Shown here piece after piece: positions 8,911 through 43,198 of a stretch of DNA of 46,621 nt. The DNA is from an uncultured Rickettsiales bacterium (lineage in GTDB: Bacteria; Pseudomonadota; Alphaproteobacteria; Rickettsiales; SXRF01): the NCBI GenBank assembly GCA_964519595.1, contig CAZFJN010000009.1, forward strand, positions 1-46,621, written 5' to 3'. The stretch's first letter is position 1. Every line of letters starts with the position of its first letter. The notes under the pieces are model-generated. The model saw nothing but the letters and a program-made list of their open reading frames with translations, was not told the DNA's origin and searched no databases. Both the position numbers and the translations under genes were made by a program.

Positions 8911-8921
8911 AATTATTTTGT

Positions 8922-8975: not shown

Positions 8976-9001
8976 GATTATTGTACATTATTTCCTGTAT
9001 A

Positions 9002-12553: not shown

Positions 12554-12560
12554 ATTAATT

Positions 12561-21490: not shown

Positions 21491-21600
21491 AATAAAAGGC
21501 TGCGTAATGGCGAATAATGGTTTTGTCAAGCTACTAGAGAATATTAGCAATAAAATCGATAGGACACTGCCTGTGCATTTCGAAGGATGATAAATCTATA

Positions 21601-25643: not shown

Positions 25644-25661
25644 CCACCCATAGAGCATATT

Positions 25662-26309: not shown

Positions 26310-26331
26310 AATTTATAACCTTGTTGGAAAA

Positions 26332-28717: not shown

Positions 28718-28723
28718 AGACTA

Positions 28724-29548
28724 TTACACCACATCTGCAAACGAACGCTCGAGAGCGTTAAAAAATATAAGTCCGCCAATCAGCATCACACATGTTACAC
28801 CAGCGGCATAGGCAGAATAAATTGGATCAGGCGCAGGAACTCCAAGAATACACCAGCGAAATCCTTCAACGATTGCTGCCATCGGATTAATCTTGATAAT
28901 CCAAGCGAATGACTCAGGAATATTTTGAGCGCCATAGCCAACCGGCGTAAGCAACATCAACAGCTGCATTAAATATGTCGTCATAAACTTCACATCATGC
29001 AGCCACACTGCCGCTGCCGCCAACCAAATCCCTAAAGACAGCCCAACCAGCAGCACCGCAAGAATCATCAGCGGCAACCATACTATATTTTCTGACACCC
29101 CTACCCCAAAAATCAGCATCAATACAGCTAAAATACAAGCTGCGATAACAAAGTCAAACAATGCTACCATTACTGAACTTAAAGGAAATAACAGGCGTGG
29201 ACAGTAGATTTTCTGCACCACACTCTTATTAGTGGTTATGCTTGTCGCGCAGCCAACAACCACATTGGCAAACAAATCCCAGCCAATTAGCGCGGCAAAT
29301 ACATATACCGGATAAGCTATCCCCTCACCTGACAATTGCGCCATTGTGCCAAACAGGAAGGTGAACACTACCATCATCATTAATGGCCTGATAACTGCCC
29401 ATGCGCCGCCCAATGCTGATTGCTTGTAGCGCACTTTAATCTCACGCACCATCAGCATCACAGCCAAATGACGCCTGACCCACAATTCCTTTGGATCAAT
29501 TGATCTCCAGGCAGATGTTGTTGTATTAGCGCTCAGAAAAACCTCCAT
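28724..29548 (-). CDS. wzm: Polysaccharide ABC exporter permease Wzm (ABC-2 type)
   Basis: 274 aa with six hydrophobic segments and 'REIKVRYKQSALGGAWAVIRPL', typical of ABC-2 permeases. It is paired with wzt. Confidence 0.85.
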   Translation of the reverse strand: MEVFLSANTTTSAWRSIDPKELWVRRHLAVMLMVREIKVRYKQSALGGAWAVIRPLMMMVVFTFLFGTMAQLSGEGIAYPVYVFAALIGWDLFANVVVGCATSITTNKSVVQKIYCPRLLFPLSSVMVALFDFVIAACILAVLMLIFGVGVSENIVWLPLMILAVLLVGLSLGIWLAAAAVWLHDVKFMTTYLMQLLMLLTPVGYGAQNIPESFAWIIKINPMAAIVEGFRWCILGVPAPDPIYSAYAAGVTCVMLIGGLIFFNALERSFADVV

Positions 29549-29569
29549 TTAATACAAACTCATACTGTT

Positions 29570-29714
29570 TCACAATCTATTGCGTAGCAATAGATTGTGA
29601 ATCTCGCCCGCTTCCGCCTTCGCTTCGCTACAGCGAAACAAGACGCGGCGGGAAACCGGTGCTTTCGGCACACGATTCCATACCAATTCTACTTCATAGA
29701 AGTAGAATTGGTAT
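29570..29714. repeat. Compound element: 14-bp-stem hairpin (29570-29600), GC-rich core, 16-bp-stem hairpin (29680-29714)
   Basis: Perfect stems tcacaatctattgc/gcaatagattgtga and ataccaattctacttc/gaagtagaattggtat, verified by hand. The core is visibly GC-richer than the AT-rich surroundings. Confidence 0.85.
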
Positions 29715-29758
29715 CATAATCTGCCGATTATGAATTGCTATGACATATGGCCTTGCTT

Positions 29759-29800
29759 AGAGCCTGTTTACGAGCTTTGAAAAGATTGTAAAGAGGCTCT
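29759..29800. repeat. Short relative of the 21601-21762 palindrome (termini agagcct...aggctct followed by tataaacta)
   Basis: The same terminal heptamers and the same right-flank motif (tataaacta) occur at 21756-21780. Confidence 0.5.
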
Positions 29801-29968
29801 TATAAACTATCAAGATGGGAAACAGTAAATAACCTAATATTGTCTGATAAACAATGCAGAATTTTTTGATTAGAATATAGGCAATAAAATTCATATTGAC
29901 TGCCAATTTCTTAAACTGTATTGATTTGGTTAAATAATTATTAACCATTAGCAAAGCGAAGTGAAGAT

Positions 29969-30868
29969 ATGGCAACTATCGACGAAAGATATGTAGATTT
30001 AGCTTTTAATGCAGCGAAGGATTATATTCAAGAGAATCAACTCAATGGCCGGTTGAATGGTAAGAATTCTCAAGAAACTGATGATATAAAACTTTTTCAT
30101 AGTAGAATTAATAATGACGAAACTTATCTACGCGGAATAGTTGCGGAAACTATTGATAAATTGTTACAAACAAGTGGCATCAGAATTAGAATTGTAAAAA
30201 ATTCTACAACTGCAGCCAAGTCTGATAGAAAAAGGAATGTCACTTATCTTGCTGGTGGGCTTGGTTCTAAGGATATATTGAGATATTTAATGCAAGTTTC
30301 TGAAGAAATACCAGAAATAGAGGAATTGAAAAATCTTGACCAAAATTCTGCATTGCTTGATTTTAAACAATTTAAGACAGAATTTAACAAACATAGTGCT
30401 ATTCCTCTTGAGCCGTATGGAAAAATTCGTCCGCTTATGCACGGAATCAACATGGCCTTGCGGCAAATTGCTGAAGAAAATAATGTAGATACAATTCAAG
30501 ATCGTAATTTGATTGCTGTTGAAAAAGAAGAATACGATACAATTAAACGTGATCTCGCAAGAGAGCAAAAAACTGGTGAATTGAATATATTCGCCATCGC
30601 ATTAACGCCAGAACAAGCAATAAAGACTGCGGTGACTTATAATTATAGTCCTGAAGAAGCAGAAAATACCGTGCGGAAATTTTATGAAACATATCGAGAT
30701 TTTTTGAAAGAAAATGCTAAGAATCTTACATTATTCGATGTGAATGGAAATGTGATCTTTAAAAAACGCGATGAAGAAGTTACAATTGATGCAGATGCAC
30801 TAGGTAAATGGCAAAGAAGTTTTGAACCGCATGAAGTTTCTAAAGGGCGTGGCGCTGCTTCTCGCTGA
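29969..30868 (+). CDS. Hypothetical protein (orphan, charged, predicted helical, no TM or signal peptide)
   Basis: 299-aa ORF with no motif I recognise. It is visibly more AT-rich than its neighbours. An ATG start is preceded by 'gaagtgaagat'. Confidence 0.5.
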   Translation: MATIDERYVDLAFNAAKDYIQENQLNGRLNGKNSQETDDIKLFHSRINNDETYLRGIVAETIDKLLQTSGIRIRIVKNSTTAAKSDRKRNVTYLAGGLGSKDILRYLMQVSEEIPEIEELKNLDQNSALLDFKQFKTEFNKHSAIPLEPYGKIRPLMHGINMALRQIAEENNVDTIQDRNLIAVEKEEYDTIKRDLAREQKTGELNIFAIALTPEQAIKTAVTYNYSPEEAENTVRKFYETYRDFLKENAKNLTLFDVNGNVIFKKRDEEVTIDADALGKWQRSFEPHEVSKGRGAASR

Positions 30869-30889
30869 TAAACCGCCGCATGTTAAATC

Positions 30890-30941
30890 TGGTTTATTGC
30901 ATGGTTTTTGTAACATGGTTTTGTAGCGTGGTTTTTGCGAC
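30890..30941. repeat. Four tandem roughly 13-bp units (tggtttattgca / tggtttttgtaaca / tggttttgtagcg / tggtttttgcgac)
   Basis: Read directly downstream of the orphan ORF. Confidence 0.75.
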
Positions 30942-30972
30942 GAACTTCTCCTTTTTCTCGCAAACATATTTC

Positions 30973-31001
30973 TTGACGAGGTCATGATAAAACCATATAG
31001 A
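30973..31001 (+). promoter_or_regulatory. Sigma70-like promoter candidate: -35 TTGACG, 17-nt spacer, -10 TATAGA
   Basis: Spacing counted by hand. It lies about 50 nt upstream of the synthase ATG at 31052. Confidence 0.35.
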
Positions 31002-31051
31002 TCTTAACCGATTGAAGTATCTGCAACAAGCTTCTGAATAAGGTTAAAAAC

Positions 31052-32146
31052 ATGAATCGTGAACTGGTTATTGACGGTGTAAAGATAAATGACGCAAGTG
31101 ATTGCTATGTTATCGCGGAAATAGGGCAGAACCATCAGGGTGATGTTGAAATCTGCAAAAAATTGTTTGATTCAGCCAAGGCCTGCGGCGCGAATGCGGT
31201 AAAAATCCAGAAGCGCAATAATTTCAAGCTCTACACAAAAGAAATGTTTGATAGTCCTTACAACAGCGAGAATGCCTTTGCAAATAGCTACGGCACACAC
31301 CGCGAGGCGCTTGAATTTAACAAAGAGCAATATCAGGAACTTATCGCCTATGCGAAAAAAATTGGCATAATGTTTTTTGCCACCGCCTGGGATTTCGACA
31401 GCGCCGATTTTCTGGAAGCTCTTGATATGCCGGCTTATAAAATAGCCTCAGCTGATATTATTAATACGCCTTTGCTTAAATATGTAGCAAGCTTCGGCAA
31501 GCCAATTATTATCAGCACCGGCGGCGCGACAATGGAAGATGTGCGGCGCGCTTATAACGCGATTTATCCGATAAACAAACAATTGTCGATTCTGCAATGC
31601 ACGGCTGGTTATCCGCCGGCCTGGGAAGAGTTAAATATCTCTGTTATTAGCACTCTGCGCGAAGAATTTCCGGAAATAGTTATTGGTTTTTCCTCGCATG
31701 ATAACGGCATTGCAATGGCGGTTGCGAGCTATGTTCTCGGTGCGCGCGTTATTGAAAAACATTTTACGCTCAATCGCGCGATGAAAGGAACTGATCACGC
31801 TTTTTCACTGGAACATTCCGGCCTGGAAAAAATGATTCGCGATTTGAAACGTTGCCATATCGCTATGGGCGATGGTGTAAAAAAGCGTTATCCAAGTGAA
31901 GAAAAACCGCTCTTTAAAATGGGAAAAAAGCTGGTTATTGCACATGATTTGCCAGCCGGTCATATTCTTACTGAAAAGGATATCGCCTTTAAATCACCAA
32001 ATGACGGCCTGCCTCCTTATGAAATAGAAAAATTTATCGGCAAGCGCATAAAAACTGCTCTGCGGGAAGATCATACTATCAGCCTCTCTGATGTTGAATC
32101 GTCGGCGGCAGGCAAAATAGCAGAAAAATCCAGCGAAGCGGCATAA
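31052..32146 (+). CDS. Ulosonic-acid synthase of the NeuB/NANS family (PEP-condensing) with C-terminal SAF/antifreeze-like domain
   Basis: Motifs 'YVIAEIGQNHQGD', 'AVKIQKRN', 'YKIASAD', 'ILQCTAGYP', 'GFSSHDNG' and 'KGTDHAFSLE'. By eye these resemble animal-type N-acylneuraminate-9-phosphate synthase. Confidence 0.85.
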   Translation: MNRELVIDGVKINDASDCYVIAEIGQNHQGDVEICKKLFDSAKACGANAVKIQKRNNFKLYTKEMFDSPYNSENAFANSYGTHREALEFNKEQYQELIAYAKKIGIMFFATAWDFDSADFLEALDMPAYKIASADIINTPLLKYVASFGKPIIISTGGATMEDVRRAYNAIYPINKQLSILQCTAGYPPAWEELNISVISTLREEFPEIVIGFSSHDNGIAMAVASYVLGARVIEKHFTLNRAMKGTDHAFSLEHSGLEKMIRDLKRCHIAMGDGVKKRYPSEEKPLFKMGKKLVIAHDLPAGHILTEKDIAFKSPNDGLPPYEIEKFIGKRIKTALREDHTISLSDVESSAAGKIAEKSSEAA

Positions 32147-32155
32147 GGAATTTCC

Positions 32156-32944
32156 ATGCTGTTTGATTTAAGTGGTCGCGTGGTGGTTATAACTGGCGCA
32201 CTTGGTCAGCTTGGCCGCGAATATACGAGCGCGATTATAAATGCCGGAGGAAGAGTGGTCGCTATTGATGTTGCGCTTCCTGATGTTGCCGGATTTGCCG
32301 ATGATAAAGTTCTCTACATCAAATGCGATATCACCAAACGCCAAGACCTTGAGCAGGCGCTTGAGCGAATTTCTGCACATTGGGAAACGCCATTTGGCTT
32401 GATAAACAACGCCGCCATTGATTCTCCGCCTGATGCGCCGGCCTCAGAAAATGGCGCTTTTGAAAATTATCCTGAAAGCTCCTGGGATAAAATAATGGAA
32501 GTTAATGTAAAAGGCACCATGCTTTGCTGTCAGGTTTTTGGCGGCGCAATGGCAACAGCCGGGCGTGGCAGCATAATAAATATAAGCTCAATTTATGGTA
32601 TTGTTTCTCCTGATCAATCTATTTACCAATATCGCAGAGATCGCGGCGAGACTTTTTTCAAGCCAATTGCATATAGTGTTTCTAAATCTGCATTATTTAA
32701 CTTAACTCGCTATCTGGCTTCTTACTGGGCGAAATCTGGCGTGCGCGTTAATACGCTTACAATTGCCGGAGTTTTCCGCAATCAGGAGCAGAGTTTTCTG
32801 AACGCTTATAACTCACGAATTCCTGTTGGCCGCATGGCAAAAGCAAATGAATATAACGGCACAATAATTTATATGTTATCAGCAGCATCAGAATATATGA
32901 CTGGCGCAACAATCACCGTTGATGGAGGCTGGACTTGCATATAA
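32156..32944 (+). CDS. Short-chain dehydrogenase/reductase
   Basis: Motifs 'VVVITGALGQLG', 'NNAA' and catalytic 'YSVSKSA'. Confidence 0.85.
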   Translation: MLFDLSGRVVVITGALGQLGREYTSAIINAGGRVVAIDVALPDVAGFADDKVLYIKCDITKRQDLEQALERISAHWETPFGLINNAAIDSPPDAPASENGAFENYPESSWDKIMEVNVKGTMLCCQVFGGAMATAGRGSIINISSIYGIVSPDQSIYQYRRDRGETFFKPIAYSVSKSALFNLTRYLASYWAKSGVRVNTLTIAGVFRNQEQSFLNAYNSRIPVGRMAKANEYNGTIIYMLSAASEYMTGATITVDGGWTCI

Positions 32945-34434
32945 ACAATCAAAAAACATCTGCTATTATTGCAAATATTCCGGACATCATTCCAAATATT
33001 ATTGATGGTAACGATTGTCTGGCGATAAGCGGCAATACTATTGATAAATTCTCGCCGCATGATGGAAATCTGCTGTATAAAATCACCAGCTCAAATCATG
33101 ATGATGTTGGCCGGGCAATTACAGTTGCAAAAAATGCTCAGACCGGCTGGGCAGATACTCCGCCGGTTCAGCGCGGCTTTATTTTGCATCAAATTTGCAA
33201 CCATCTTGAGAAGAATGCTGATAAAATCGCAGAAATAGTAGCGAAAGAAACCGGCAAATCACTTAAAGACGCAAAAGGAGAAACATCCGGCGCGATTGCG
33301 CTTGGCCGTTTTTATGCCGGAGAAGGCCAGCGCCTGTACGGACGTACCACTACATCAGGAACTGCAAATAAATACGCAATGACCATCCGCCAACCGTGCG
33401 GAATTGCCGGCTTAATCGTTGCCGCTAATACGCCAATAGCAAATGTCGCCTGGAAAACATTTCCGGCGCTTATTTGCGGTAATGCGGCGATTTTAAAAGC
33501 TCCTGAAGATACGCCGGCAACGGCATGGATTTTTACAAAATTGCTGCATGAGGCAGGTTTGTCGTCCGGATTACTGAATCTGATACAAGGATCAGGTTTA
33601 GAAGCCGGAGCGCCAATTGTTGAATCAGCTGATATTGATGTAATCAGTTTTACCGGCTCAACCAAGGTTGGCAAATGGATTGCTGAAATTGCCGGAAAAC
33701 GCCTCGCTAAAATATCCCTGGAACTAGGCGGAAAAAATCCACTCATTGTCTGCGAAGATGCCGACATCACTCGCGCGGTGAACTGGATATGCCTTTCTGC
33801 ATTTAGTAACGCTGGTCAACGCTGTGCAGCAGGCAGCCGCATAATTATTGTAGAAACTGTTTATCAGAAACTGGTAGAGGCCTTGCTTGCTAAAGTCGCC
33901 ACGCTTAAAGTTGGCAATAGCGATGACGATGATTTTGGCCCGGTTGTTAACGAGCGGCAGCTTAATAATATTTTAGAGGCTATACAGAGGGCTAAATCGC
34001 GCGGCGCTAATATTTTGTGTGGCGGCAACCGCTTGAGGGGAAAAAAACACGAAGGCGGCTATTATATAGCGCCAACGATAATGGACAACGTATCGCCAGA
34101 TGATGAAATATCAACTCTTGAATTATTTGGTCCGGTTACCACACTTTACAAAGCGCGTAATTACGCCGAGGCACTGGCGCTCGCTAACCATTCGCCTTAT
34201 GGACTTACTGCCTGCATTCATACCAGCAACTTTGATCGTGCGACGCATTTTACTCAGGCAATAAAATCCGGAGTTGCCGTTGTTAATGGCGGAACATTTG
34301 GCAGCGAACCACATATGCCTTTTGGTGGCTTAGGCTTCTCCGGCAACGGCAGTCGTGAACCAGGTACTGAAGCGCTTAATATTTACAGTGAATTAAAAAC
34401 AATATATTTGAATGTTGATCCGACTAAATACTGA
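32935..34434 (+). CDS. NAD(P)-dependent aldehyde dehydrogenase
   Basis: Motifs 'ELGGKNP', the catalytic Cys region 'FSNAGQRCAAGSR' and 'PFGGLGFSGNG'. It starts at a TTG overlapping the SDR gene by 10 nt; no in-frame ATG occurs before the conserved core. Confidence 0.88.
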   Translation: MHINNQKTSAIIANIPDIIPNIIDGNDCLAISGNTIDKFSPHDGNLLYKITSSNHDDVGRAITVAKNAQTGWADTPPVQRGFILHQICNHLEKNADKIAEIVAKETGKSLKDAKGETSGAIALGRFYAGEGQRLYGRTTTSGTANKYAMTIRQPCGIAGLIVAANTPIANVAWKTFPALICGNAAILKAPEDTPATAWIFTKLLHEAGLSSGLLNLIQGSGLEAGAPIVESADIDVISFTGSTKVGKWIAEIAGKRLAKISLELGGKNPLIVCEDADITRAVNWICLSAFSNAGQRCAAGSRIIIVETVYQKLVEALLAKVATLKVGNSDDDDFGPVVNERQLNNILEAIQRAKSRGANILCGGNRLRGKKHEGGYYIAPTIMDNVSPDDEISTLELFGPVTTLYKARNYAEALALANHSPYGLTACIHTSNFDRATHFTQAIKSGVAVVNGGTFGSEPHMPFGGLGFSGNGSREPGTEALNIYSELKTIYLNVDPTKY

Positions 34435-34450
34435 TCCAGATAGATATTAT

Positions 34451-34520
34451 ACTGTTAAATTCATGCTGCTAAATTCATACTGTTAAATTCATACTGTTAA
34501 ATTTATATTGCTAAATGTTA
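34451..34520. repeat. Five tandem 14-bp units (actgttaaattcat and variants)
   Basis: Counted directly in the ALDH-transketolase spacer. The array ends 10 nt before the transketolase ATG. Confidence 0.9.
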
Positions 34521-34530
34521 GGAAGAAATC

Positions 34531-36486
34531 ATGGGCGATCTGATTGGCGAGGCAGTCGAAGGAAAACTGCATTATATAAGTGCAAACGAGTTTGATCGCC
34601 TACGCGCAATTAATGCTCCGGCAAGCGCAAAAGCAGCGCTCTTTGCCGATATGTGCCGCCTGAATGCGCTGTATATGATTGCTCGCGCCGGTTCTGGCCA
34701 TATCGGCAGCAGCTTTTCCAGCATGGATATAATGAGCTGGCTGATGCTTGAAACATTACAGCTGGACGAATCTCCGGCACATCCGGACAACGATATTTTC
34801 TTTTCTTCCAAAGGTCATGACGCTCCTGCTTATTACAGCGTCCTCATTGCCACTGGTAAATTACCTTTTGAATATATCCACCAGCTACGCAGATTGAATG
34901 GTTTGCCAGGCCATCCTGACATTAATACACCGTGGATTCATACTAACACTGGCTCGCTCGGCATGGGAATTTCCAAAGCAAAAGGAATGCTCACGGCAAA
35001 AAAAATTGCCAACGCAAAAGGCCGCGTGTTCGTTCTTACCGGCGATGGAGAACTTCAGGAAGGACAATATTGGGAATCGCTTATTTCTGCAGCCAACCAT
35101 AATTTAGATAAGCTCATAGTTATTGTTGATCATAACAAGCTTCAGTCTGATACGTTTGTGAAAAATGTCAGCGATCTGGGAGATTTAGACGCAAAATTCA
35201 GCGCATTCGGCTGGCATGTACAACGCATTGACGGTCATAATTTCACGGCAATTGAACAGGCGCTTGTCCAATGCGCTAAAACCAGCGGCAAACCACACAT
35301 TATAATTGCTGATACGATTAAAGGTTGCGGCGTATCGTTCATGGAACATACATCGCTTGATTCCGATAATGACATGTACCGTTTTCATAGCGGCGCGCCG
35401 GATAAAACATCCTACGCCAGCGCTCTGAAAGAGCTGATTGAGCGCATCAATCGACAATTTACCGCACTTAAGCAAGCACCGCTCTCGCTGGAATCCGAAG
35501 AAAGACCAGCAGCGCCTGCTTCTTCCGATATATTGCAAAAACTTATTCCGGCCTATAGCAATGCCTTACTTGCTGAAGCCAGAAAACATAAAAATCTGGT
35601 CGCACTTGATGCCGATCTGGTACTCGATACCGGACTTATTCCATTTCGCAATCAATATCCTGATCGCTTCATCGAATGCGGTATCGCCGAACAGGACATG
35701 GTTTCACAAGCCGGCGGCATGGCGCTGAAAGGCCTGTTGCCGATTGTGCATTCATTCGCCTGCTTCTTGTCGACACGACCAAATGAACAGATTTATAACA
35801 ATGCAACTGAAAAATTGCATGTTGTCTATGTAGCGTCACTGGCCGGAGTTATTCCCGGAGGGCCTGGTCATTCACATCAGGCGGTGCGCGATATTGCCGC
35901 GCTGAAAGGCACGCCCGGCATGGTGATGATCGAGCCGTCATGCGAAGCAGAAGTATCTATGGCGCTTGATTACTGCCTTAATCAGCATAAACGCAGCGCC
36001 TATATCAGGCTGTGTTCAGTGCCATGGCCGGTATCTTTTTCGTTGCCTGAAGGTTATAAGCTGAAATATGGTGAAGGCATTGCGCTCACCGAGGGCAGTG
36101 ATGTTGCTATTTTTGCTTATGGACCAATTATGCTAAATAATGCGGTACTCGCTGCAAACAACCTGAAAAAATCCGGAATCAGCGCCAAAGTTATCAACCT
36201 GCCCTGGCTGAACATAATTGATGTTTCGTGGCTTACCGGAGAGCTGAAAAACATCAGAAGCATCGTCACGATTGATAATCACTATCTATCTGGCGGTCAG
36301 AATGAAACTATCCTTACTGCAGCAGCCGAAGCCGGCTTGCTTGCCGGAAAGAAAGTAATTCGCTTTGGACTAAGCGATGTTCCTGTATGTGGAAGCCCGG
36401 CGGAGGTGCTTTCTCATCACCATCTTGATACTGCAAGCATCTGTAACGCAGTGCAGAAATTGTTTGCTGAATCTTGTGCAGCCTAA
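34531..36486 (+). CDS. Transketolase-family ThDP enzyme; single-chain fusion of the N- and C-terminal halves of split-type transketolases
   Basis: N-terminal half: 'AGSGHIGSSFS', 'SSKGHDAPAYY', 'LPGHPD' and 'VLTGDGELQEGQYWE'. C-terminal half: 'FIECGIAEQDMVSQAGG' and 'GPGHSHQAVRD'. Confidence 0.85.
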   Translation: MGDLIGEAVEGKLHYISANEFDRLRAINAPASAKAALFADMCRLNALYMIARAGSGHIGSSFSSMDIMSWLMLETLQLDESPAHPDNDIFFSSKGHDAPAYYSVLIATGKLPFEYIHQLRRLNGLPGHPDINTPWIHTNTGSLGMGISKAKGMLTAKKIANAKGRVFVLTGDGELQEGQYWESLISAANHNLDKLIVIVDHNKLQSDTFVKNVSDLGDLDAKFSAFGWHVQRIDGHNFTAIEQALVQCAKTSGKPHIIIADTIKGCGVSFMEHTSLDSDNDMYRFHSGAPDKTSYASALKELIERINRQFTALKQAPLSLESEERPAAPASSDILQKLIPAYSNALLAEARKHKNLVALDADLVLDTGLIPFRNQYPDRFIECGIAEQDMVSQAGGMALKGLLPIVHSFACFLSTRPNEQIYNNATEKLHVVYVASLAGVIPGGPGHSHQAVRDIAALKGTPGMVMIEPSCEAEVSMALDYCLNQHKRSAYIRLCSVPWPVSFSLPEGYKLKYGEGIALTEGSDVAIFAYGPIMLNNAVLAANNLKKSGISAKVINLPWLNIIDVSWLTGELKNIRSIVTIDNHYLSGGQNETILTAAAEAGLLAGKKVIRFGLSDVPVCGSPAEVLSHHHLDTASICNAVQKLFAESCAA

Positions 36487-36497
36487 CACTGAATATT

Positions 36498-38222
36498 ATG
36501 CAGACTAACACGCGTTTTTTTATCGCACGCTCACGTTATGGGAAACACGCCATACGCCTGCTAACCATGCGCTATATCAAAGGCATTTCCTGGATACATC
36601 CCTTGTATCGCCTACTTAGAATCAAACGCATGTGGTTCGGCGGACACATTAACTGGAATGCTCTACTACACAATAAACCACTGCCTGCGCGACAATCAAA
36701 ATCACCGCGCATTCTGATCGCCACCAGCACCGGCGCGCATCTTGCCGCGTCACGCGTTGAACAAACTCTTGGCGTGGCGCTGCATTTACGTGATGCTAAA
36801 CTATCATTCTTACTCTGTGATGGTTCGCTTCCAGCCTGCATGATGTGTGAGAGTTCCCTGCTATCTGATACGGTAAGTTTTGTTAAATCCGGTCCAAAAG
36901 AATTATTGTGCAATACATGTTTTGCGCCATCCGCCAGCTCCATAGCTCCGCTTGGCCTGCCATTGCATAGTTATAGCGATTGGCTTGATGCAACTACTAA
37001 AACCGCTATTGAATCAAGCGTTGCCAGGATTGGAAAAGATGAGCTGGCAAATTTCACTCAGGACGGAATTCGCCTCGGTGAACATGCCATGGCGGCTTCC
37101 TGCCGTTTCTTTGGCACAAGCGATGTTTTTGTAATGAATAACGGAGAAACTGTACTGCGTCGCTATCTGGTTGCCGCCTGGTTTACTTTGTGTGTATGCC
37201 AGAAATTATTCGCGCAAGAACGTCCGGATATTGTGGTGCTGCATCACGGTATTTATGTGCCGCAAGGAGTTATTGCCGATTACGCAAAACATAATGGCAT
37301 CAGGGTGGTAACATGGCATCCGGCTTACCGCAAAGGCACTTTTATATTCAGCCATGACGATACATACCATCGCACTATGATCAATGAGCCAACTGATTAT
37401 TGGAAAAATATGCCTTGGGATGCACAAAAAGAAGAAAAAATCATGCGCTATCTCGCCTCGCGTCAGACCGGAAGCAGCGACTGGATCTGGTTTCATGAAA
37501 GTCCGCTATTCGATAGCAGCAAAATTAAAAAAGAACTGGCTCTTGATGAAAATAAACCAGTAATAGGCCTGCTTACGAACGTTGTGTGGGACGCGCATTT
37601 GCATTATCCAAACAATGCCTACTCCAGCATGATGGAATGGTTGTTTGATACAATTGACCATTTTAAAACACGCAAAGATGTGCAGTTGGTGATTCGTATT
37701 CATCCGGCAGAGATATATGGCAATGTCCAGTCACGCCAAACTGTAATAGATGAAATATTCAGGCGCTATGAAACGCTACCGCCTTCTATAAAAATTATTC
37801 CGCCACTAAGCGACATTAGTACCTACAGCATTATGGCCTTGTGCGACAGCGTGCTAATTTACAGCACAAAAACCGGCATTGAGCTGGCAACAAACGGGAT
37901 GCAAGTTATAGTCGCCGGAGAAGCATGGATACGCGGCAAAGGCTTTACGGTGGATGCTAATAGCCCGGAAGAGTTTAGAAATATTCTGGCACGCTTACCG
38001 CTTAGAACAAAATTAGACTCAGAAAAAATAACGCTGGCGCGGCGTTATGCTTATCATTTTTTCTTCCGGCGCATGATAGATATTGAACTATTTATTCCAA
38101 CCAAGAGTCAGCCGCCTTTTAATCTTAATATACAATCGCTGGATGATCTACTGACTGGAGAATGTAAAGGTCTTGATGTGGTCTGCAATGGAATTATTAA
38201 TGGAACGCCTTTTATTCAGTAA
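36498..38222 (+). CDS. GT-B-fold capsule-biosynthesis-like glycosyltransferase with Cys-rich N-terminal insert
   Basis: Motifs 'LVIRIHPAE' and 'VLIYSTKTGIELATNGMQVIVAG', plus the Cys cluster 'CDGSLPACMMCE...CNTCF'. I chose the start at ATG 36498; the track ORF starts at a TTG at 36474 inside the transketolase gene. Confidence 0.5.
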   Translation: MQTNTRFFIARSRYGKHAIRLLTMRYIKGISWIHPLYRLLRIKRMWFGGHINWNALLHNKPLPARQSKSPRILIATSTGAHLAASRVEQTLGVALHLRDAKLSFLLCDGSLPACMMCESSLLSDTVSFVKSGPKELLCNTCFAPSASSIAPLGLPLHSYSDWLDATTKTAIESSVARIGKDELANFTQDGIRLGEHAMAASCRFFGTSDVFVMNNGETVLRRYLVAAWFTLCVCQKLFAQERPDIVVLHHGIYVPQGVIADYAKHNGIRVVTWHPAYRKGTFIFSHDDTYHRTMINEPTDYWKNMPWDAQKEEKIMRYLASRQTGSSDWIWFHESPLFDSSKIKKELALDENKPVIGLLTNVVWDAHLHYPNNAYSSMMEWLFDTIDHFKTRKDVQLVIRIHPAEIYGNVQSRQTVIDEIFRRYETLPPSIKIIPPLSDISTYSIMALCDSVLIYSTKTGIELATNGMQVIVAGEAWIRGKGFTVDANSPEEFRNILARLPLRTKLDSEKITLARRYAYHFFFRRMIDIELFIPTKSQPPFNLNIQSLDDLLTGECKGLDVVCNGIINGTPFIQ

Positions 38223-38988
38223 ACATGGCGTCAGAAACATTAGAAATAGTGGCAGTAGAGATTTCCGGAAGCTGCGCTTGTCCTGATGCAATCATATGTT
38301 TGGCCAGCCACCAATCATCCGGCATATTAATATCAAAACCTTCCGCGCCTTCGGTGATAAAAGGAATGACGTTATTTCCGGCAATGGTGCGATATTGCTC
38401 TACCACGCGCGTCCAGGCAATTTCAAGGCTGGCATTTTGCACATAAATTTCCGGCAATGATGCCATCTGACAAGAATGCCACGGAACGCCGTCAATATTT
38501 TTCGGCATTAGCGGCTGCATCCGATTTTGATCAATTATCCACATTTTTCCCGGATGCTGGCTGCATTTTTCTACGGCACGCAATGAATCAGCCTCAGGAT
38601 CATTACTGAACAAATTCCAAGCGCGGCGTATGGTATCTGCACTGCGGAATGGGCTGGTAGGACGCAAGATGCTGAAGCAATCAAAAACCCTGCCGGCTTT
38701 GGCAAGAGTAGATAATGTATATTCAATCCATTCAATATCCGGCGAAGTAGAAGTAGCAAACTGAAGCGGACGCAGATGTGGAACTTCCGCTCCATAATGT
38801 TTTGCGATTTCGGCATAGTAAGCATTGTCAGTAGAAACCATCACCATATCAAACAGCTTGCTCTGAATAGCCGCTGTAATGCTATAAGCAAGCAACGGAT
38901 GACCATGCAGCACGCGGACATTCTTACCGGGAAGACGAACAGAGCCGCCGCGAGCAGGAATCATAGCAATGGTTTTGAGCTTTGACAT
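38212..38988 (-). CDS. CMP-ulosonic acid synthetase (acylneuraminate cytidylyltransferase family)
   Basis: 'IAMIPARGGSVRLPGKNVRVLHGHPLLAYSI'. I placed the start at ATG 38988. Its 3' end overlaps the convergent GT-B gene by 11 nt. Confidence 0.85.
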   Translation of the reverse strand: MSKLKTIAMIPARGGSVRLPGKNVRVLHGHPLLAYSITAAIQSKLFDMVMVSTDNAYYAEIAKHYGAEVPHLRPLQFATSTSPDIEWIEYTLSTLAKAGRVFDCFSILRPTSPFRSADTIRRAWNLFSNDPEADSLRAVEKCSQHPGKMWIIDQNRMQPLMPKNIDGVPWHSCQMASLPEIYVQNASLEIAWTRVVEQYRTIAGNNVIPFITEGAEGFDINMPDDWWLAKHMIASGQAQLPEISTATISNVSDAMFTE

Positions 38989-39060
38989 AGCTGGATAATT
39001 AACGGAAAAAGCGGCAATCAGCAACTTTAAATTGTGCTGTTCTAAATTTTTCTACTTTAA

Positions 39061-39230
39061 ATATACTCATTACACTTCAAGAGTTGGTATTTATTCCAAG
39101 TATTTTTGTTCACTATATCAGATAAAAATCGAAGGAATACTTATTGATATTTCAAGATTTTTATCTGATATAGTGAACAATAAAGACGAGAGCCGAAGAA
39201 ATGCCAACTCTTGAAGTGTAATGAGTATAT
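39061..39230. repeat. 170-bp nested palindrome: perfect 27-bp outer arms (39061-39087 / 39204-39230) and perfect 25-bp inner arms (39106-39130 / 39156-39180)
   Basis: I verified both arm pairs by manual reverse complementation. It sits in the divergent spacer between the cytidylyltransferase and MCP genes. Confidence 0.92.
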
Positions 39231-39338
39231 ATTTCTAATAAAGATTGCAATAATTATACAAATTAGCAATATTTTAATTTAGTTTGTATAAAGGTCAGGT
39301 TAACATCATCAACATCAATAATTTATAGGAAGCAATGT

Positions 39339-41474
39339 ATGCGTAATAATGGACCAGTTAGCGGGCGTGAAGTTCTGATGAAAGATGGCTCAGTCATCGT
39401 ATCAAGCACTGATGAAAAGGGCAAGATACGCTTTGTCAATGAGGATTTTGTACAGATTTCCGGCTTTACGCGTGACGAGCTGATTGGCCAGCCGCATAAT
39501 CTGATTCGCCATTGCGATATGCCGCCGGAAGCTTTTGAGGATATGTGGCGCGATCTGAAAGCCGGAAAATCATGGAGCGGCTATGTAAAAAACCGCATTA
39601 AAAATGGCGATCATTACTGGGTTCAGGCAAATGCGATGCCTTGTCTGGAAAATGGCAACATCACTGGCTATATTTCCATTCGCAGCAAGCCTGATTCGGC
39701 AATTACGCAGGAAGTTGATAAAATATACAAACAGTTTATTGCTGGAAAAGCTGGCTCTGTGCGGATTGAACATGGCAGATTTATTGATCATTCAACCATG
39801 GCGACCGTCAGACGCTGGTTTAAAAAATTTGGCGCGAAAATTACCGCAATGGGCGTAGCATTGTGCGTTCTGGTTGCTGTTGTAAGCGGCGTTGGCATTT
39901 ATTTTAAAAACAAAACAACTCAATCGCTGAAAACAGTTTATGAAGATCGCACAATACCAGCCGGACAGCTGGCAGAAACAGATGCTCTGCTTTACACTAC
40001 CATGCTGAATTTCAGTTTAATAGCTTCCGGAGAAGAAGAATCAGCAAAGCTGATTAAAGAAACAGAAGAAGCAATTGTTGAAATTGACAAAATATGGTCG
40101 GCATACATGGCGACATATCTGACGCCGGAAGAAAAAATTCTCGCTGATCAATATGCCGATCAGAAAAAGAAATATGTTGAATCTGGCGTTATTCCGGCAT
40201 TGGAAATGGCTAAATCCGCGCAGAATTCCGGCCATAATCCGGAGCTGGCAAAATTCCTGCTCGGAGCACACAAGCTGTTTGATGAAACTCAGGGAACTAA
40301 TAAGAAACTTATTCAGCTCCAGCTTGATGTATCAAAAGAAGCTTATGAGCAAGCGCAAAAAGATTCAGTTACAGGGCTAATTACAACTCTCGCAGTAACA
40401 TTGGCGGCGATAGGAATTGCCTTCTTTACTGCCAGCTATATCAGGCGCGCTCTTAATGCCAGAATGGCGGAGATTGATTCAAACCTCAATTCTATTGCCA
40501 GCGGCAAATATGATAACCAGATTGAAGTTGGTGATGATGAATTGCAAAACACGCTTACTTTGGTAAAAGCGCTGCAGGCAAAGCTGGCTTATGGTGAACT
40601 TGAGAAGAAAGAGCTAGAGCAGCAGAAAAAACAGCTACAAGCGCAAATGGCTGCTGATTTTGAGCAAAGTGTAAAATCTATTGTGAATATTTTAGCGGCG
40701 GCGGCAACCGAGCTGTCGCAAACGGCAGAAAGCATGGTAGACAGCGCCAAAGACAGCGCCAATAAAGCTGCAACCGCCAGCGGCGCGGCAGCAAGCACCA
40801 CGGCGAATGTGCAATCTGTGGCAGCGGCATCAGAAGAGCTTTCCGCCACTGTGAAAGAAATTTCCGCACAATTGCAGAAAACCACACATCTGGTTTCTGA
40901 TTCCAGAGAAAAAGCAAAAAATGCTGACGGTGTTGCTAATGTGTTAAATGAAGCAACAAATAAAGTCGCTGCCGCTATGGATATGATTGCGAATATCGCC
41001 GGACAGATTAATCTGCTGGCTTTGAATGCAACCATTGAATCAGCGCGCGCCGGAGATGCTGGAAAAGGATTTGCGGTAGTTGCCAGCGAAGTGAAAAATC
41101 TGGCTAGTCAGGCTGATAAAACTTCCGGAGAAATTCAGCTTATTGTCACAGAAATGCGGCAGGCAGCACAGGCAATTATTGCAGCGTTAACAGAAATTGG
41201 CGGTTCAGTAGGATCAATTTCCGAGGCCGCTTCCAGCGTTGCTTCTGCCGTTGAAGAGCAATCAGCAACAACCGGAGAAATATCCAGAAACATGCAAACC
41301 GCCGCGCAAAGCACGCAATCAATCGCCGATAGCCTTACTGATGTTCAATCATCTTCTTCTCATGCCGGAGCAGCATCGGAACAAATGCTAATGGCGTCCA
41401 GAGAGCTTTCAAAACAAGCTGAGGAATTAAATACACAAGTAGATAATTTCCTGCGCCGTATCAGAGCGGCTTAA
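39339..41474 (+). CDS. Methyl-accepting chemotaxis protein with N-terminal Aer-type PAS domain, periplasmic helical-bundle region, HAMP and signalling domain
   Basis: The PAS motifs '[21 protein letters not shown]' and '[14 protein letters not shown]' closely resemble E. coli Aer. Two TMs (about aa 168-190 and 345-367). The signalling hairpin is '[31 protein letters not shown]'. Confidence 0.92.
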
Positions 41475-42344: not shown

Positions 42345-43175
42345 TTATTGATCAAGTATAAAAACCAGCGAGCAGTTTATTCCGGTTGAATCAATGCGGT
42401 AAGCAGTGCCGTTTTCACAAGTTTGATACGCTGCCGAATCATTATATTGACCGCGTATTTTTCCGGTTGCCGGCAGACCATCATCATTTTTAAGATCAAG
42501 CGTATAAGCCTCCTCGCCGTCTAAAACCGGAATCTGCGATCTGGCACAGCTTAAGTCAAGATCAATATCATCCTGTAGACTGCCGCCTAACCATAAGGAA
42601 TTAACAGTCGGCAAATCGGCAGTACTCATTGGAAAATAAGTGTATGTTCCATTAGCGCCGCCAGTATAAGAGCTGGCGCTATAGCTGTTTGCTTCAAGAT
42701 TCCAGCCAGCGCCTTTCAGCTTGGAGGCAGGAATATTATTGCCCGGCTGAACATCAGTATCACAGGAAGAGGTAAACCTTGTTCCCGGCATATTCTGGCT
42801 GATAAATCCGGAAATACCGAGATGCCGCCAGGCGGTTATATGTTCATAAGTTGCGCCATTTATATAACCGTCACCATTACCATTGCAAGTTTCAGTGCTT
42901 TCTCCAGCTCCAACTCCTCCAGGATCATATGTACAACTACCGCTGACCTCGCCCCAGAGTGCAGTAGCGCCAGCAAAATCTCCCGGCAGAGCGCGATATT
43001 TGCTCATGAAATTACGAACCGCGCCGCTATAAGCCTGATATTCCGACATCACCGCCTGAATCTGCGAAGTGCGAACCATAGATTGCGAAACCACCACTCC
43101 GGCAGCGATCAAAGACACTACCAGCACAACAACAACAACCTCTATCAATGAGAAACCAGCTTTATTTTTCATCAT
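42345..43175 (-). CDS. Prepilin-type N-terminal cleavage/methylation domain protein (pilin/pseudopilin-like)
   Basis: Leader 'MMKNKAG|FSLIEVVVVVLVVSLIAAG'. The Cys-rich C-terminal domain is paralogous to the next gene. Confidence 0.7.
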   Translation of the reverse strand: MMKNKAGFSLIEVVVVVLVVSLIAAGVVVSQSMVRTSQIQAVMSEYQAYSGAVRNFMSKYRALPGDFAGATALWGEVSGSCTYDPGGVGAGESTETCNGNGDGYINGATYEHITAWRHLGISGFISQNMPGTRFTSSCDTDVQPGNNIPASKLKGAGWNLEANSYSASSYTGGANGTYTYFPMSTADLPTVNSLWLGGSLQDDIDLDLSCARSQIPVLDGEEAYTLDLKNDDGLPATGKIRGQYNDSAAYQTCENGTAYRIDSTGINCSLVFILDQ

Positions 43176-43198
43176 TACTCTCAAAAATTACTCAAAAA

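Follow-up and report, generated by a model that had tools for sequence, protein, structure and literature searches.

The Kdn pathway of Bacteroides thetaiotaomicron consists of a Kdn-9-P synthase (BT1714), a Kdn-9-P phosphatase (BT1713) and a CMP-Kdn synthetase. The gene cassette described here shares with it a NeuB-family synthase, a CMP-synthetase and, in most relatives, a KdsC-type C0 HAD phosphatase. Both are free of amino-sugar and epimerase genes, and a sugar-6-phosphate acceptor would probably be common to both. The cassette differs by the addition of an SDR, a remodelled transketolase (TK), an aldehyde dehydrogenase (ALDH) and a KpsC-like glycosyltransferase (GT), by the separate clade of its synthase and, in the locus studied here, by the lack of a phosphatase gene. 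With the Neu5Ac, legionaminic (Leg) and pseudaminic acid (Pse) pathways it has in common PEP condensation by a NeuB fold, CMP activation and use in surface glycans. It has none of their precursor-forming enzymes, and its synthase scores below both equivalog cut-offs, has no equivalent of Arg314 and branches outside NmNeuB, PseI, SpsE and a Leg-type NeuB.

The cassette TK has the three-domain fold of canonical transketolase (EC 2.2.1.1; human TKT, 4kxu; split TK of Carboxydothermus, 6yak/6yaj), its ThDP and metal motifs, the activating Glu and the His residues which handle the ketol donor. It lacks the phosphate-binding Arg, Ser, His and Arg as well as the stereo-determining Asp, and its gene is devoted to a glycan cassette and not to the pentose-phosphate pathway. 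In rifamycin/AHBA biosynthesis, too, a TK gene dedicated to the pathway lies next to that of a PEP-condensing enzyme; the TK supplies iminoerythrose-4-P to aminoDAHP synthase. That TK uses sugar phosphates upstream of condensation by an enzyme of the DAHP-synthase type, whereas the cassette TK has lost the phosphate site and the condensing enzyme is of the NeuB type.

The GT resembles the KpsC/KpsS beta-Kdo transferases (PF05159) in its best fold match, an invariant His-Pro pair and the association with an ABC-2 exporter. It differs from KpsC in sequence (about 12% identity) and in length, being about 250 residues longer including a four-Cys insert, and the TM score is only 0.5 over a KpsC-sized core. 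WbbB is the beta-Kdo chain terminator in Klebsiella O12 and Raoultella terrigena, and a terminal ulosonate cap read by the carbohydrate-binding domain of Wzt is a known logic.

3-Deoxy-D-lyxo-hept-2-ulosaric acid (Dha) occurs in plant RG-II, in prasinophyte thecae and in the LPS of Rhizobiaceae; neither its biosynthesis nor the form in which it is activated has yet been established (PMC3355719, PMC12168206). The product class predicted for the cassette is likewise a 7-carbon 2-keto-3-deoxy di-acid, and the cassette is present in Rhizobium, but the predicted product would have the L-arabino or L-lyxo instead of the D-lyxo configuration.

Organization of the locus

An earlier note on the window (the whole stretch of 46,621 nucleotides from an uncultured Rickettsiales bacterium) had described six tightly packed ORFs. 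All of them are present and their domain assignments hold (the last line lists neighbouring genes):

31052-32146, + strand: NeuB-family synthase, 364 aa (PF03102 and SAF)
32156-32944, + strand: SDR, 262 aa (adh_short_C2)
32935-34434, + strand: ALDH, 499 aa, TTG start (Aldedh, PF00171)
34531-36486, + strand: TK, 651 aa (Transketolase_N, Transket_pyr and Transketolase_C in one chain)
36474-38222, + strand: GT-B glycosyltransferase, ORF of 582 aa from TTG (weak PF05159, Capsule_synth)
38212-39024, - strand: cytidylyltransferase (CTP_transf_3, PF02348), likely start at the ATG at 38988
27362-29548, - strand: Wzm and Wzt of an ABC exporter (ABC2_membrane; ABC_tran and Wzt_C), context only, in the adjoining polysaccharide locus

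The NeuB and SDR genes are separated by 9 nt, the SDR and ALDH genes overlap by 10 nt, and a gap of 96 nt precedes the TK gene. The database gene call for the GT comprises 574 aa and begins with the ATG at 36498, 11 nt past the TK stop codon; this ATG is the likely start. The cytidylyltransferase gene is convergent to the GT gene and overlaps it by 11 nt.

The canonical partner genes are absent, as had been noted before: no NeuC-type epimerase, PseB/LegB-type pathway set, DegT aminotransferase or PglD-type acetyltransferase was found anywhere in the window. No phosphatase gene was found in the window either, nor within 10 kb of the cassette in the closest relative.

Conservation of the cassette

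The TK is the signature gene of a cassette found again and again in bacteria, in hundreds of species which represent more than 12 phyla. Its homologues number in the thousands, share about 60% identity and are spread over phyla; 587 places in a collection of species-representative genomes were confirmed to contain a relative. Synteny was analysed in a sample of 52 loci with sufficient flank, covering more than 12 phyla, and partners were counted up to 9 kb from the TK. NeuB, SDR, ALDH and cytidylyltransferase were all found within this distance in 37 of the 52 loci (singly, NeuB in 44, SDR in 46, ALDH in 44 and cytidylyltransferase in 46). The grouping is far beyond chance, and the neighbourhood conservation which the earlier note had proposed to check, that of TK, ALDH and SDR with the synthase, extends across phyla. 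Its description of an ulosonic-acid operon which matches none of the characterised routes to Neu, Leg, Pse or Kdn also stands.

The usual gene order is NeuB-(phosphatase)-SDR-ALDH-CMP-transferase-TK-GT. The GT adjoins the TK in 22/52 loci, and in relatives the cytidylyltransferase gene directly precedes that of the TK (70 loci; median offset -795 nt). The six window genes are one locally rearranged copy of this widespread, uncharacterised cassette. Six loci have a compact form without ALDH, NeuB-(HAD)-SDR-CMPT-TK-GT, so that the ALDH is not strictly essential. A Streptomyces locus keeps the NeuB-SDR-TK triad; here the ALDH is absent and a class-III aminotransferase is encoded two genes past the TK. 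The cassette was also found in Rhizobium leguminosarum, and the TK in R. laguerreae and Ciceribacter. Sequence comparison indicates that each cassette enzyme retains its catalytic residues. In the literature we found no publication describing the cassette.

The condensing enzyme and its phosphatase

The synthase, a TIM barrel, matches PF03102 with 265 bits and also contains a SAF domain. It stays below the equivalog cut-offs for NeuB (TIGR03569, 298 versus 400) and PseI (244 versus 340). A neighbour-joining tree places it in a separate, cassette-specific clade (‘class A’), with 28-36% identity to NmNeuB, PseI, SpsE and a Leg-type NeuB. As to its placement, a question raised in the earlier note, it does not cluster with these characterised enzymes. 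The PEP, metal and catalytic positions are kept. Arg314 of the Neisseria enzyme, which binds the N-acetyl group, corresponds to Ser315, and Ser is found at this position in 35 of the 42 class-A orthologues. Judged by its sequence, the synthase is orthologous to none of the Neu, Leg and Pse enzymes.

A HAD phosphatase is encoded inside the cassette in 35/52 loci. It is one of two kinds, never both. The small HAD is similar to KdsC and Kdn-9-P phosphatase (81 bits versus a cut-off of 180 on the model for the B. thetaiotaomicron Kdn-9-P phosphatase), and such a KdsC-like phosphatase occurs in 20/52 loci. The presence of a phosphatase in the cassette of 35 relatives makes the earlier suggestion of a sugar-phosphate-using, Kdn-9-P-like route plausible.

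A transketolase with an altered distal pocket

The TK had been taken for a fusion of split-type halves. This holds as a description; the protein is equally a short single-chain TK of the mammalian type, human TKT being its best PDB sequence match (231 bits). Among 80 family members, H57, K94, H96, H128, D172, N202, K264, H286, E387 and H449 are invariant, and presumably these include the residues which bind the C1-OH of the donor in canonical TK. The family is marked by the motifs DADLxLDTG, GGPGHSHQ and RLxS.

Four residues of the human enzyme have in-register replacements which are invariant or near-invariant in the family (hS345 to D366, hH416 to L437, hD424 to P445 and hR474 to S496), and no Arg equivalent to hR318 is aligned in it. 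We assume, from the yeast and human structures, that these five distal-pocket residues of canonical TK bind the sugar phosphate and the acceptor. The cassette TK therefore appears to retain the ThDP and ketol-handling chemistry without the canonical sugar-phosphate and acceptor residues. Such changes would make sugar phosphates less likely as substrates and point to a new ligand in the distal pocket.

Redox enzymes, activation and transfer

The SDR is a classical short-chain dehydrogenase, and its motifs TGxxGxxG, NNAA and S...YxxxK are invariant in 61 orthologues. The NCBIfam models closest to it are PRK09186, GolD/DthD, mannonate oxidoreductase, gluconate 5-dehydrogenase and KduD; it reaches the cut-off of none of them. 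The enzymes so named presumably carry out oxidation at the penultimate carbon of sugar acids and polyols, KduD acting on a 2-keto-3-deoxy sugar acid. The ALDH (PF00171, 491 bits) is an NAD(P)-dependent, non-acylating enzyme with Cys297, Glu263 and Asn165 as catalytic residues, invariant in 56 orthologues. Its best models are the 2-oxoglutarate-semialdehyde and 2,5-dioxovalerate dehydrogenases (429 and 407 bits, both below cut-offs).

The cytidylyltransferase is a predicted CMP-ulosonate synthetase. Its P-loop PARxGSxR..GKN is conserved in 72 orthologues, and it reaches 131 bits versus a cut-off of 206 on the PseF model, KdsB models being weaker.

The PF05159 match of the GT has 24 bits versus a cut-off of 20. 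Its AF2 model (pLDDT 91.4, pTM 0.91) has KpsC as top Foldseek match in the PDB (8fux, E 2e-8). Four further entries of KpsC beta-Kdo transferases (6mgb, 8fuw, 6mgd and 6mgc) are among the top 18, with E-values down to 1e-6 and TM scores normalised to the target of 0.50-0.55; the remaining matches of the top 18 include generic GT-B folds. In 36 homologues, H402-P403 and the four residues C107, C114, C138 and C141 are invariant, which confirms the Cys-rich insert seen earlier as genuine. The best fold matches to KpsC and the invariant His-Pro pair render the suggested role plausible, and we propose that the GT may be the CMP-ulosonate transferase.

Wzm and Wzt are the probable export route of the ulosonate-receiving glycan, and Wzt has a C-terminal carbohydrate-binding domain (Wzt_C, PF14524, 37 bits). 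Genes of the Wzm/Wzt type flank the cassette also in R. leguminosarum and in the closest relative.

A tentative C2-shortening route and its alternatives

We tentatively propose, at somewhat less than an even chance, a C2-shortening route in which the remodelled TK trims a sialic-acid-like sugar to a shorter di-acid for a surface polysaccharide; both the succession of the steps and the nature of the sugar are inferred. The synthase would condense PEP with a common hexose 6-phosphate which is not N-acetylated (Man-6-P or Glc-6-P type) to a 3-deoxy-nonulosonate 9-phosphate, and the HAD phosphatase, encoded in the cassette of most relatives and not in the window, would liberate the C9 hydroxyl. 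Oxidation of C8-OH by the SDR would generate a terminal -CHOH-CO-CH2OH ketol, the donor motif of transketolases. By our reasoning, nonulosonates derived from Man or Glc should then have the D-threo C7/C6 configuration required of TK donors. The TK may split the C7-C8 bond, so that a C2 (glycolaldehyde) unit is removed and there remains a C7 aldehyde, which the ALDH would convert to the carboxylate of 3-deoxy-hept-2-ulosaric acid, a Dha-like di-acid. The cytidylyltransferase would form the CMP-sugar, and the GT would attach its ulosonate to the polysaccharide for which the neighbouring Wzm/Wzt serves as exporter, possibly as a terminal cap read by the carbohydrate-binding domain of Wzt.

We counted for this route the synteny, the Kdn-type core (phosphatases, missing Arg314 equivalent, no amino-sugar or epimerase genes), the kept cofactor residues and altered distal pocket of the TK, the nearest models of the SDR, the KpsC-like features of the GT, and the nearest models of the ALDH, which suggest oxidation of the omega-aldehyde of a 2-oxo acid. 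The class-III aminotransferase family includes semialdehyde-using enzymes, and the loss of the ALDH in Streptomyces together with such a gene is consistent with an omega-aldehyde intermediate. The NeuB enzymes known to us set C4 in the configuration seen in Neu, Leg and Pse. One would accordingly expect an L-arabino product if Man is the source and an L-lyxo product if it is Glc, and not the plant D-lyxo Dha, a mismatch which counts against the route. Also counted against it are the SDR and ALDH subfamily similarities, none of which reaches a curated cut-off and which have little discriminating power, the six compact loci without ALDH, the phosphatase missing from the window and from within 10 kb of the closest relative's cassette and, as to the fate of the C2 fragment, the lost canonical acceptor site of the TK. 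A further point against it is a basic residue, R/K337, which precedes the site of the lost Arg318 equivalent by two positions and could still bind an anion. 3-Deoxy-lyxo-heptulosaric acid is given as reported in Rhizobiaceae LPS where PMC5713287 cites Russa et al. (1991); this precedent for the product class and the cassette in R. leguminosarum count in favour.

It is possible, though rather unlikely, that TK, SDR and ALDH act ahead of the condensation. They would then produce or modify an unusual aldose or aldehydo-acid for the NeuB-type synthase to join with PEP. An aldonate could be oxidised by the SDR to a 5-keto-aldonate, cleaved by the TK to a tetruronic semialdehyde and condensed with PEP to a heptulosaric acid; another such precursor could be a rare aldose phosphate. 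The synteny data apply equally here, the cluster-encoded TK which feeds the aminoDAHP synthase of the rifamycin AHBA pathway is a precedent, gluconate 5-dehydrogenase is among the nearest models of the SDR, and a carboxylate-bearing ketose would also fit the lost phosphate site. However, the KdsC-type phosphatase in most cassettes implies a phosphorylated product and hence a sugar-phosphate acceptor, which a TK without phosphate site is ill-suited to make. The phosphatase or the ALDH would be left without a clear role, and a cyclic hexose would be an unusual substrate for an ALDH. The form considered in the earlier note, with the three enzymes building an aldose-phosphate acceptor, is disfavoured by the absence of all the canonical sugar-phosphate-binding residues in register from the TK family; tailoring after condensation, with SDR, TK and ALDH shortening the tail by two carbons to an ulosaric acid, fits better.

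We regard it as improbable that C2 trimming takes place and the ALDH only detoxifies glycolaldehyde, the building block then being a C7 aldehyde, alcohol or amine, 3-deoxy-heptulosonic and not heptulosaric. The six compact cassettes and the Streptomyces variant, which lacks the ALDH and has a class-III aminotransferase, would agree with this, as would release instead of transfer of the C2 unit by a TK which has lost the canonical acceptor pocket. Yet the ALDH is 50-66% identical across phyla and has a fixed place between SDR and cytidylyltransferase in most loci, which is unusual for a generic detoxifier, and it is nearest to families using 2-oxo-acid semialdehydes.

The other earlier suggestion, that the TK supplies a glycolyl or C2 unit to decorate a standard nonulosonic acid as in quinocarcin and naphthyridinomycin biosynthesis, now seems very unlikely. 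ThDP-bound dihydroxyethyl is chemically a glycolyl equivalent and the TK is conserved beside the synthase, but no ACP, lipoyl/E2 or acyltransferase partner was seen among the scanned window proteins and recurrent cassette neighbours, the lack of aminotransferase and ManNAc genes leaves no amino group for N-glycolylation, and the synthase lacks the N-acyl-binding Arg. A coincidental neighbourhood of housekeeping or catabolic TK, ALDH and SDR beside a plain Kdn or Neu operon, to which the 96-nt gap and the convergent cytidylyltransferase might point in the window alone, is effectively refuted by the synteny statistics, with the same set in 37/52 loci from more than 12 phyla in mostly fixed order, and is at odds with the non-canonical active site of the TK.

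The cassette is widespread among bacteria and without a described function, and it very probably encodes a dedicated pathway to a non-canonical CMP-ulosonate.

Gene layout and family assignment

The six genes lie close together at 31052–39024. Our ORF map matches the layout described in the earlier note almost to the nucleotide, and Pfam and NCBIfam agree on each assignment.

Genes of the cassette
31052–32146: NeuB-family synthase (NeuB)
32156–32944: SDR, 9-nt gap after NeuB
32935–34434: ALDH, TTG start, overlapping the SDR gene by 10 nt
34531–36486: transketolase (TK), 651 aa
36474–38222 (ORF): GT-B glycosyltransferase (GT), likeliest start ATG 36498, giving 574 aa as in the protein database
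38212–39024, minus strand: cytidylyltransferase, 11-nt overlap with the GT gene, probable start ATG 38988

All specific equivalog models of NCBIfam were missed by the cassette proteins. The synthase scored 297.8 bits with the NeuB equivalog TIGR03569 (cut-off 399.65) and 243.8 bits with the PseI model TIGR03586 (cut-off 340). The best transketolase equivalog for the TK was NF004559 (407.9 versus 488 bits), and the cytidylyltransferase reached 131 of the 206 bits set for the PseF model. No NeuC-type epimerase, PseB/LegB-type pathway, DegT aminotransferase or PglD-type acetyltransferase was found in the rest of the window, and the partner set of PseI (dehydratase, aminotransferase and acetyltransferase) is absent from the window. 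The main claim of the earlier note, that no characterised pathway fits these genes, holds.

A promoter and terminator scan of 29400–39500 gave counts close to shuffle expectation and was uninformative. On the same strand as NeuB, and 183 nt upstream of it, lies an ORF for 299 residues (29969–30868, plus strand) without family match. It sits in a stretch of low GC (~0.39) that separates the exporter genes from the cassette, and is absent from all related loci.

Conservation of the cassette

Thousands of full-length proteins about 60% identical to the TK occur in Rhizobium, Bradyrhizobium, Methylobacter, Thiobacillus, Chlorobium, Zixibacteria and others; identity across phyla is 53–62%. The same partners were found beside TK in three genomes, those of Rhizobium leguminosarum, Chlorobium sp. 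KB01 and the closest metagenomic relative. When one genome per species was scanned, relatives of the TK were confirmed at 587 places, and the best 80 of these 587 loci span more than 12 phyla.

Partners were counted in the 52 loci having at least 5 kb upstream and at least 3 kb downstream. Within 9 kb of TK, NeuB was present in 44 of the 52, SDR in 46, ALDH in 44, the cytidylyltransferase in 46 and the large GT in 22. NeuB, SDR, ALDH and cytidylyltransferase occurred together within this distance in 37/52 loci, so that TK, ALDH and SDR are syntenic with the synthase in relatives too. A coincidental neighbourhood is excluded by this synteny. The cassette is widely distributed, strongly conserved and not a peculiarity of this genome.

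The canonical order, as revealed by tblastn and ORF clustering, is NeuB, (small HAD), SDR, ALDH, CMP-transferase, TK, (larger HAD), GT. The window copy is slightly rearranged, the cytidylyltransferase gene being downstream and inverted, and in the closest relative (locus L004) NeuB-SDR-ALDH is divergent from TK-GT. Six loci without ALDH retain NeuB-(HAD)-SDR-CMP-transferase-TK-GT. In cassettes without a NeuB match (loci L052, L045, L074 and others) no other condensing enzyme was found, only methyltransferases and GTs. Moorena and Methylococcales have TK-only loci, where the cassette is evidently split.

Flagellar genes adjoin some copies. The cassette of the closest relative (L004, 15361–21956) lies next to genes for flagellin, flgK, fliW and a FliB-like protein, and in two Methylococcales MAGs (L053 and L073; 9935–14390) TK alone adjoins fliD. 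Flagellin, and not LPS, may be what the sugar decorates in some lineages.

Synthase and phosphatases

The synthase is a NeuB TIM barrel (PF03102, 265 bits) with conserved PEP, metal and catalytic positions (E23, K51, K130, S133, S155, H216 and H237). Arg314 of NmNeuB is the SAF-domain residue which we take to hold the N-acetyl group of ManNAc; PDB entries 4ipi and 4ipj depart from wild type exactly at this position. It is Ser315 in the window protein and Ser in 35 of the 42 orthologues of class A, the cassette synthase clade that includes the window protein. Class B synthases, a second group that takes the same place in the cassettes of Rhizobium and other Proteobacteria, have Ile. In an NJ tree with NmNeuB, PseI (8h2c), SpsE (1vli) and the Leg-type NeuB of Chlorobium as references, classes A and B group together, apart from all four, so that firm clustering with a characterised Leg, Pse or Neu enzyme, named in the earlier note as part of a possible refutation, was not seen in this tree. 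The cassette synthases are 28–36% identical to NmNeuB, PseI, SpsE and the Leg-type NeuB.

One of two HAD phosphatases is encoded in 35/52 loci, and both together in none. The small HAD (168 aa, KdsC family) is located between NeuB and SDR and scores 113 bits with the KdsC model and 81 bits with that of the Kdn-9-P phosphatase of Bacteroides thetaiotaomicron; the larger one (271 aa) follows directly after TK. Their mutual exclusion suggests that one can stand in for the other and that the pathway passes through a phosphorylated ulosonate. As synthase, phosphatase and CMP-synthetase are all present, the cassette holds a complete Kdn-type core plus SDR, TK and ALDH. The window itself has synthase and CMP-synthetase and lacks amino-sugar genes, but the phosphatase, in-cassette in those 35 relatives, is missing: no HAD gene was found in the window, nor within 10 kb of the cassette in the closest relative.

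A transketolase with an altered substrate site

Human TKT is the best PDB sequence match of the window TK. Residues were mapped by HMMER alignment to 4kxu and an alignment of 80 family sequences.

Residues of the window TK, their human TKT counterparts and conservation in the family
H57: H37, invariant
K94 and H96: K75 and H77, invariant
H128: H110, invariant
D172: D155, invariant
N202: N185, invariant
K264: K244, invariant
H286: H258, invariant
E387: E366, invariant
H449: Q428 (yeast His481), invariant
no Arg in register (LIPAYS in place of ATRKAY): Arg318
Asp366: Ser345, invariant, motif DADLxLDTG
Leu437: His416, invariant
Pro445: Asp424, 79/80, motif GGPGHSHQ
Ser496: Arg474, 77/80, motif RLxS

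The catalytic apparatus is retained, as the ThDP/metal motif GDGE, N202, the activating E387 and the histidines H57, H96, H128 and H286 are invariant in all 80 sequences. In canonical transketolases the substrate phosphate is presumably bound by human Arg318, Ser345, His416 and Arg474 (yeast Arg359, Ser386, His469 and Arg528), and D-threo stereochemistry is, we assume, fixed by human Asp424 (yeast Asp477). All five residues are replaced in the window TK, although a basic residue (R/K337) two positions upstream of the lost Arg318 equivalent is a caveat on the loss of the phosphate site. Judged by these residues, the cassette enzyme appears as a neofunctionalised transketolase, which should still make or break ketol C–C bonds on a different, probably non-phosphorylated, substrate.

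Two other roles for TK, as a chain extender and as a 2-oxo-acid decarboxylase acting at C1–C2, were rejected, as they leave ALDH or CMP activation without a substrate.

Proposed chain shortening of a nonulosonate

The chemistry is constrained by the ALDH, which requires an aldehyde other than the one consumed by the synthase. A transketolase donor ends in -CHOH-CO-CH2OH, a ketol whose primary hydroxyl is free, and an aldehyde remains after cleavage. The nearest models of the SDR are gluconate 5-dehydrogenase, KduD, GolD/DthD and mannonate oxidoreductase, all below their cut-offs. The activities they name oxidise the penultimate carbon of sugar acids or polyols, creating a terminal ketol, and the KduD substrate is a 2-keto-3-deoxy sugar acid. 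The ALDH is closest to the 2-oxoglutarate-semialdehyde and 2,5-dioxovalerate dehydrogenase families, whose substrates are 2-oxo acids carrying the aldehyde to be oxidised at the omega end.

The most economical scheme, which gives each conserved gene a role, would comprise seven steps. NeuB would condense a hexose-6-phosphate with PEP to a nonulosonate-9-phosphate, to be dephosphorylated by the HAD phosphatase. The SDR would then oxidise C8, TK would cut between C7 and C8, and ALDH would oxidise C7, followed by CMP activation and transfer of the CMP-sugar to a glycan. The predicted product is a 3-deoxy-hept-2-ulosaric acid, L-arabino if derived from Man and L-lyxo if derived from Glc. The phosphatase is required in this scheme because the ketol must have a free C9-OH; a phosphate site would be unnecessary for TK, in agreement with the residues lost, and the proposed ALDH step agrees with the reaction of its closest families. 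By Fischer-projection reasoning, the 8-keto derivatives of Man- and Glc-derived nonulosonates would be D-threo at C7/C6, as transketolase donors need to be.

The earlier note had offered two readings. The first, that TK, ALDH and SDR build or edit the acceptor before condensation, we regard as rather unlikely: it leaves the phosphatase or the ALDH with no clear role, and a sugar phosphate would have to be made by a TK without phosphate site. Less probable still is a variant of the scheme in which glycolaldehyde removal is the sole task of the ALDH and the pathway ends in a C7 aldehyde, alcohol or amine. The second reading, glycolyl supply of the quinocarcin/naphthyridinomycin type, is highly improbable, as every required partner is missing: neither an ACP nor a lipoyl/E2 domain was seen in the scanned window proteins or among the genes recurring next to the cassette in 82 loci.

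A search of a plasmid collection gave a single match, in Streptomyces sp. NBC_01237 (NZ_CP108509.1; locus L086, 3583–14437). It contains the NeuB-SDR-TK triad but no ALDH, and its TK is 48% identical with the family motifs kept. The triad is followed by genes for an RmlD-like reductase, a HAD_2 phosphatase, a class-III aminotransferase (two genes after TK) and a LuxR regulator. Before it come genes reminiscent of hydroxyphenylglycine biosynthesis, encoding a glyoxalase/dioxygenase, an FMN-dependent dehydrogenase and a class I/II aminotransferase. The class-III aminotransferase family includes semialdehyde-using enzymes. The locus looks like a natural-product gene cluster borrowing the cassette chemistry, and this offshoot may feed a natural-product pathway. 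Together with the six ALDH-less loci it is consistent with an omega-aldehyde intermediate whose fate depends on the lineage.

Glycosyltransferase and the surrounding polysaccharide locus

PF05159 (Capsule_synth) covers residues 357–503 of the GT only (24.1 bits, cut-off 20). A PDB sequence search with the GT gave no match, and the fold was searched instead, with a confident AF2 model from a 36-sequence alignment (pLDDT 91.4, pTM 0.91). Its top Foldseek match in the PDB is the KpsC beta-Kdo transferase 8fux (E 2e-8); the KpsC entries 6mgb, 8fuw, 6mgd and 6mgc are also among the top 18, with generic GT-B folds between them. E-values of these further entries go down to 1e-6, with TM scores, normalised to the target, of 0.50–0.55. 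A His-Pro pair (H402-P403) is invariant in the 36 sequences; such an HP motif marks CMP-dependent ulosonate transferases. The modelled KpsC-like fold and this pair support the earlier proposal of the GT as a candidate CMP-ulosonate transferase. Four Cys residues are also invariant in the family, and the insert bearing them resembles a putative Zn ribbon.

The window includes a large ABC-transporter-dependent polysaccharide locus with genes for Wzm, Wzt, a sulfotransferase, a carbamoyltransferase and an NDP-3-C-methyl-6-deoxyhexose set. The adjacent Wzt carries the carbohydrate-binding domain Wzt_C, which makes a non-reducing-end cap a plausible role for the ulosonate, the analogue being WbbB, a beta-Kdo terminator. 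Three genes of the O-polysaccharide locus imply a heavily decorated glycan.

Decoration genes at 23811–27357
23811–25643, plus strand: carbamoyltransferase
25662–26309, minus strand: small methyltransferase
26332–27357, minus strand: sulfotransferase

The deoxyhexose set (11124–14649 and 20429–21550, minus strand) encodes a nucleotidyltransferase, a 4,6-dehydratase, a 3,5-epimerase, a Methyltransf_13/14 C-methyltransferase and a reductase. In Chlorobium sp. KB01 (L002, 2522–6984) the genes of the same set are intermingled with those of the cassette, which suggests that both sugars belong to the same glycan type. Neither Pfam nor NCBIfam has a match for a 362-aa protein (10016–11104, minus strand), which shares 45% identity with the last 300 residues of an equally unmatched 839-aa protein (15606–18125, minus strand). 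Both bear the glycine-rich motif EIG(A/S)GWGGFAYQ and probably reflect the duplication, inside the polysaccharide locus, of an undescribed domain of methyltransferase type.

The window also includes a dcw cell-division cluster, and in a homologue search the host FtsA shared 70–81% identity with proteins from MAGs that carry the label Alphaproteobacteria or Rickettsiales, which places the host as an uncultured alphaproteobacterium. In the longest murC ORF (7468–9150, minus strand), about 100 additional N-terminal residues look foreign to MurC. The ORF overlaps by 149 nt the 3' end of an upstream 328-aa ORF (9002–9988, minus strand) of no family, and the real start codon of murC probably lies further downstream. 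At 42345–43999 (minus strand), two adjacent genes encode pseudopilin/type-IV-pilin-like proteins of 279 and 266 aa, each with an N-terminal hydrophobic helix after a GF(S/T)L(I/A)E motif. The pair is flanked by a folate-binding YgfZ-like gene and a tRNA/rRNA methyltransferase gene.

Relation to heptulosaric acids

The predicted product resembles 3-deoxy-D-lyxo-hept-2-ulosaric acid (Dha), the biosynthesis and activated form of which are listed as unknown in plant reviews of 2012 and 2025 (PMC3355719, PMC12168206). For bacteria, 3-deoxy-lyxo-heptulosaric acid is attributed to Rhizobiaceae LPS where PMC5713287 cites Russa et al. (1991). We found the cassette in R. leguminosarum and the TK also in R. 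laguerreae and Ciceribacter, which is only a correlation. The stereochemistry differs, being L-arabino or L-lyxo in the prediction and D-lyxo in Dha. Characterised NeuB enzymes give a C4 configuration opposite to that of D-lyxo Dha, and this compound was therefore set aside as the product.

Ulosonic acids (Kdo, sialic, legionaminic and pseudaminic acid) are major determinants of bacterial surface recognition, and their pathways are regarded as well catalogued. Full-text literature searches found no paper describing the cassette gene set, most of the listed matches for heptulosaric acid dealing with plant RG-II or algae, nor did we find a curated family accounting for it. This contrasts with the abundance of the cassette (587 confirmed TK places, thousands of metagenomic homologues). 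We classify it as a variant of ulosonic-acid biosynthesis and transfer, apparently undescribed, with a repurposed transketolase as its signature. Tentatively, and with the odds against so far-reaching a proposal, it could be the missing bacterial route to Dha-type acids, its TK the first known to trim C2 off a free (non-phosphorylated) nonulosonic acid, and 'oxidise, cut, oxidise' a way of diversifying sialic-acid-like sugars in hundreds of species from more than 12 phyla. If chain shortening is true, transketolase enzymology would gain a new reaction type, there would be a first genetic handle on heptulosaric (Dha-like) acids, and the corresponding glycans would become predictable from genomes, those of rhizobia included.
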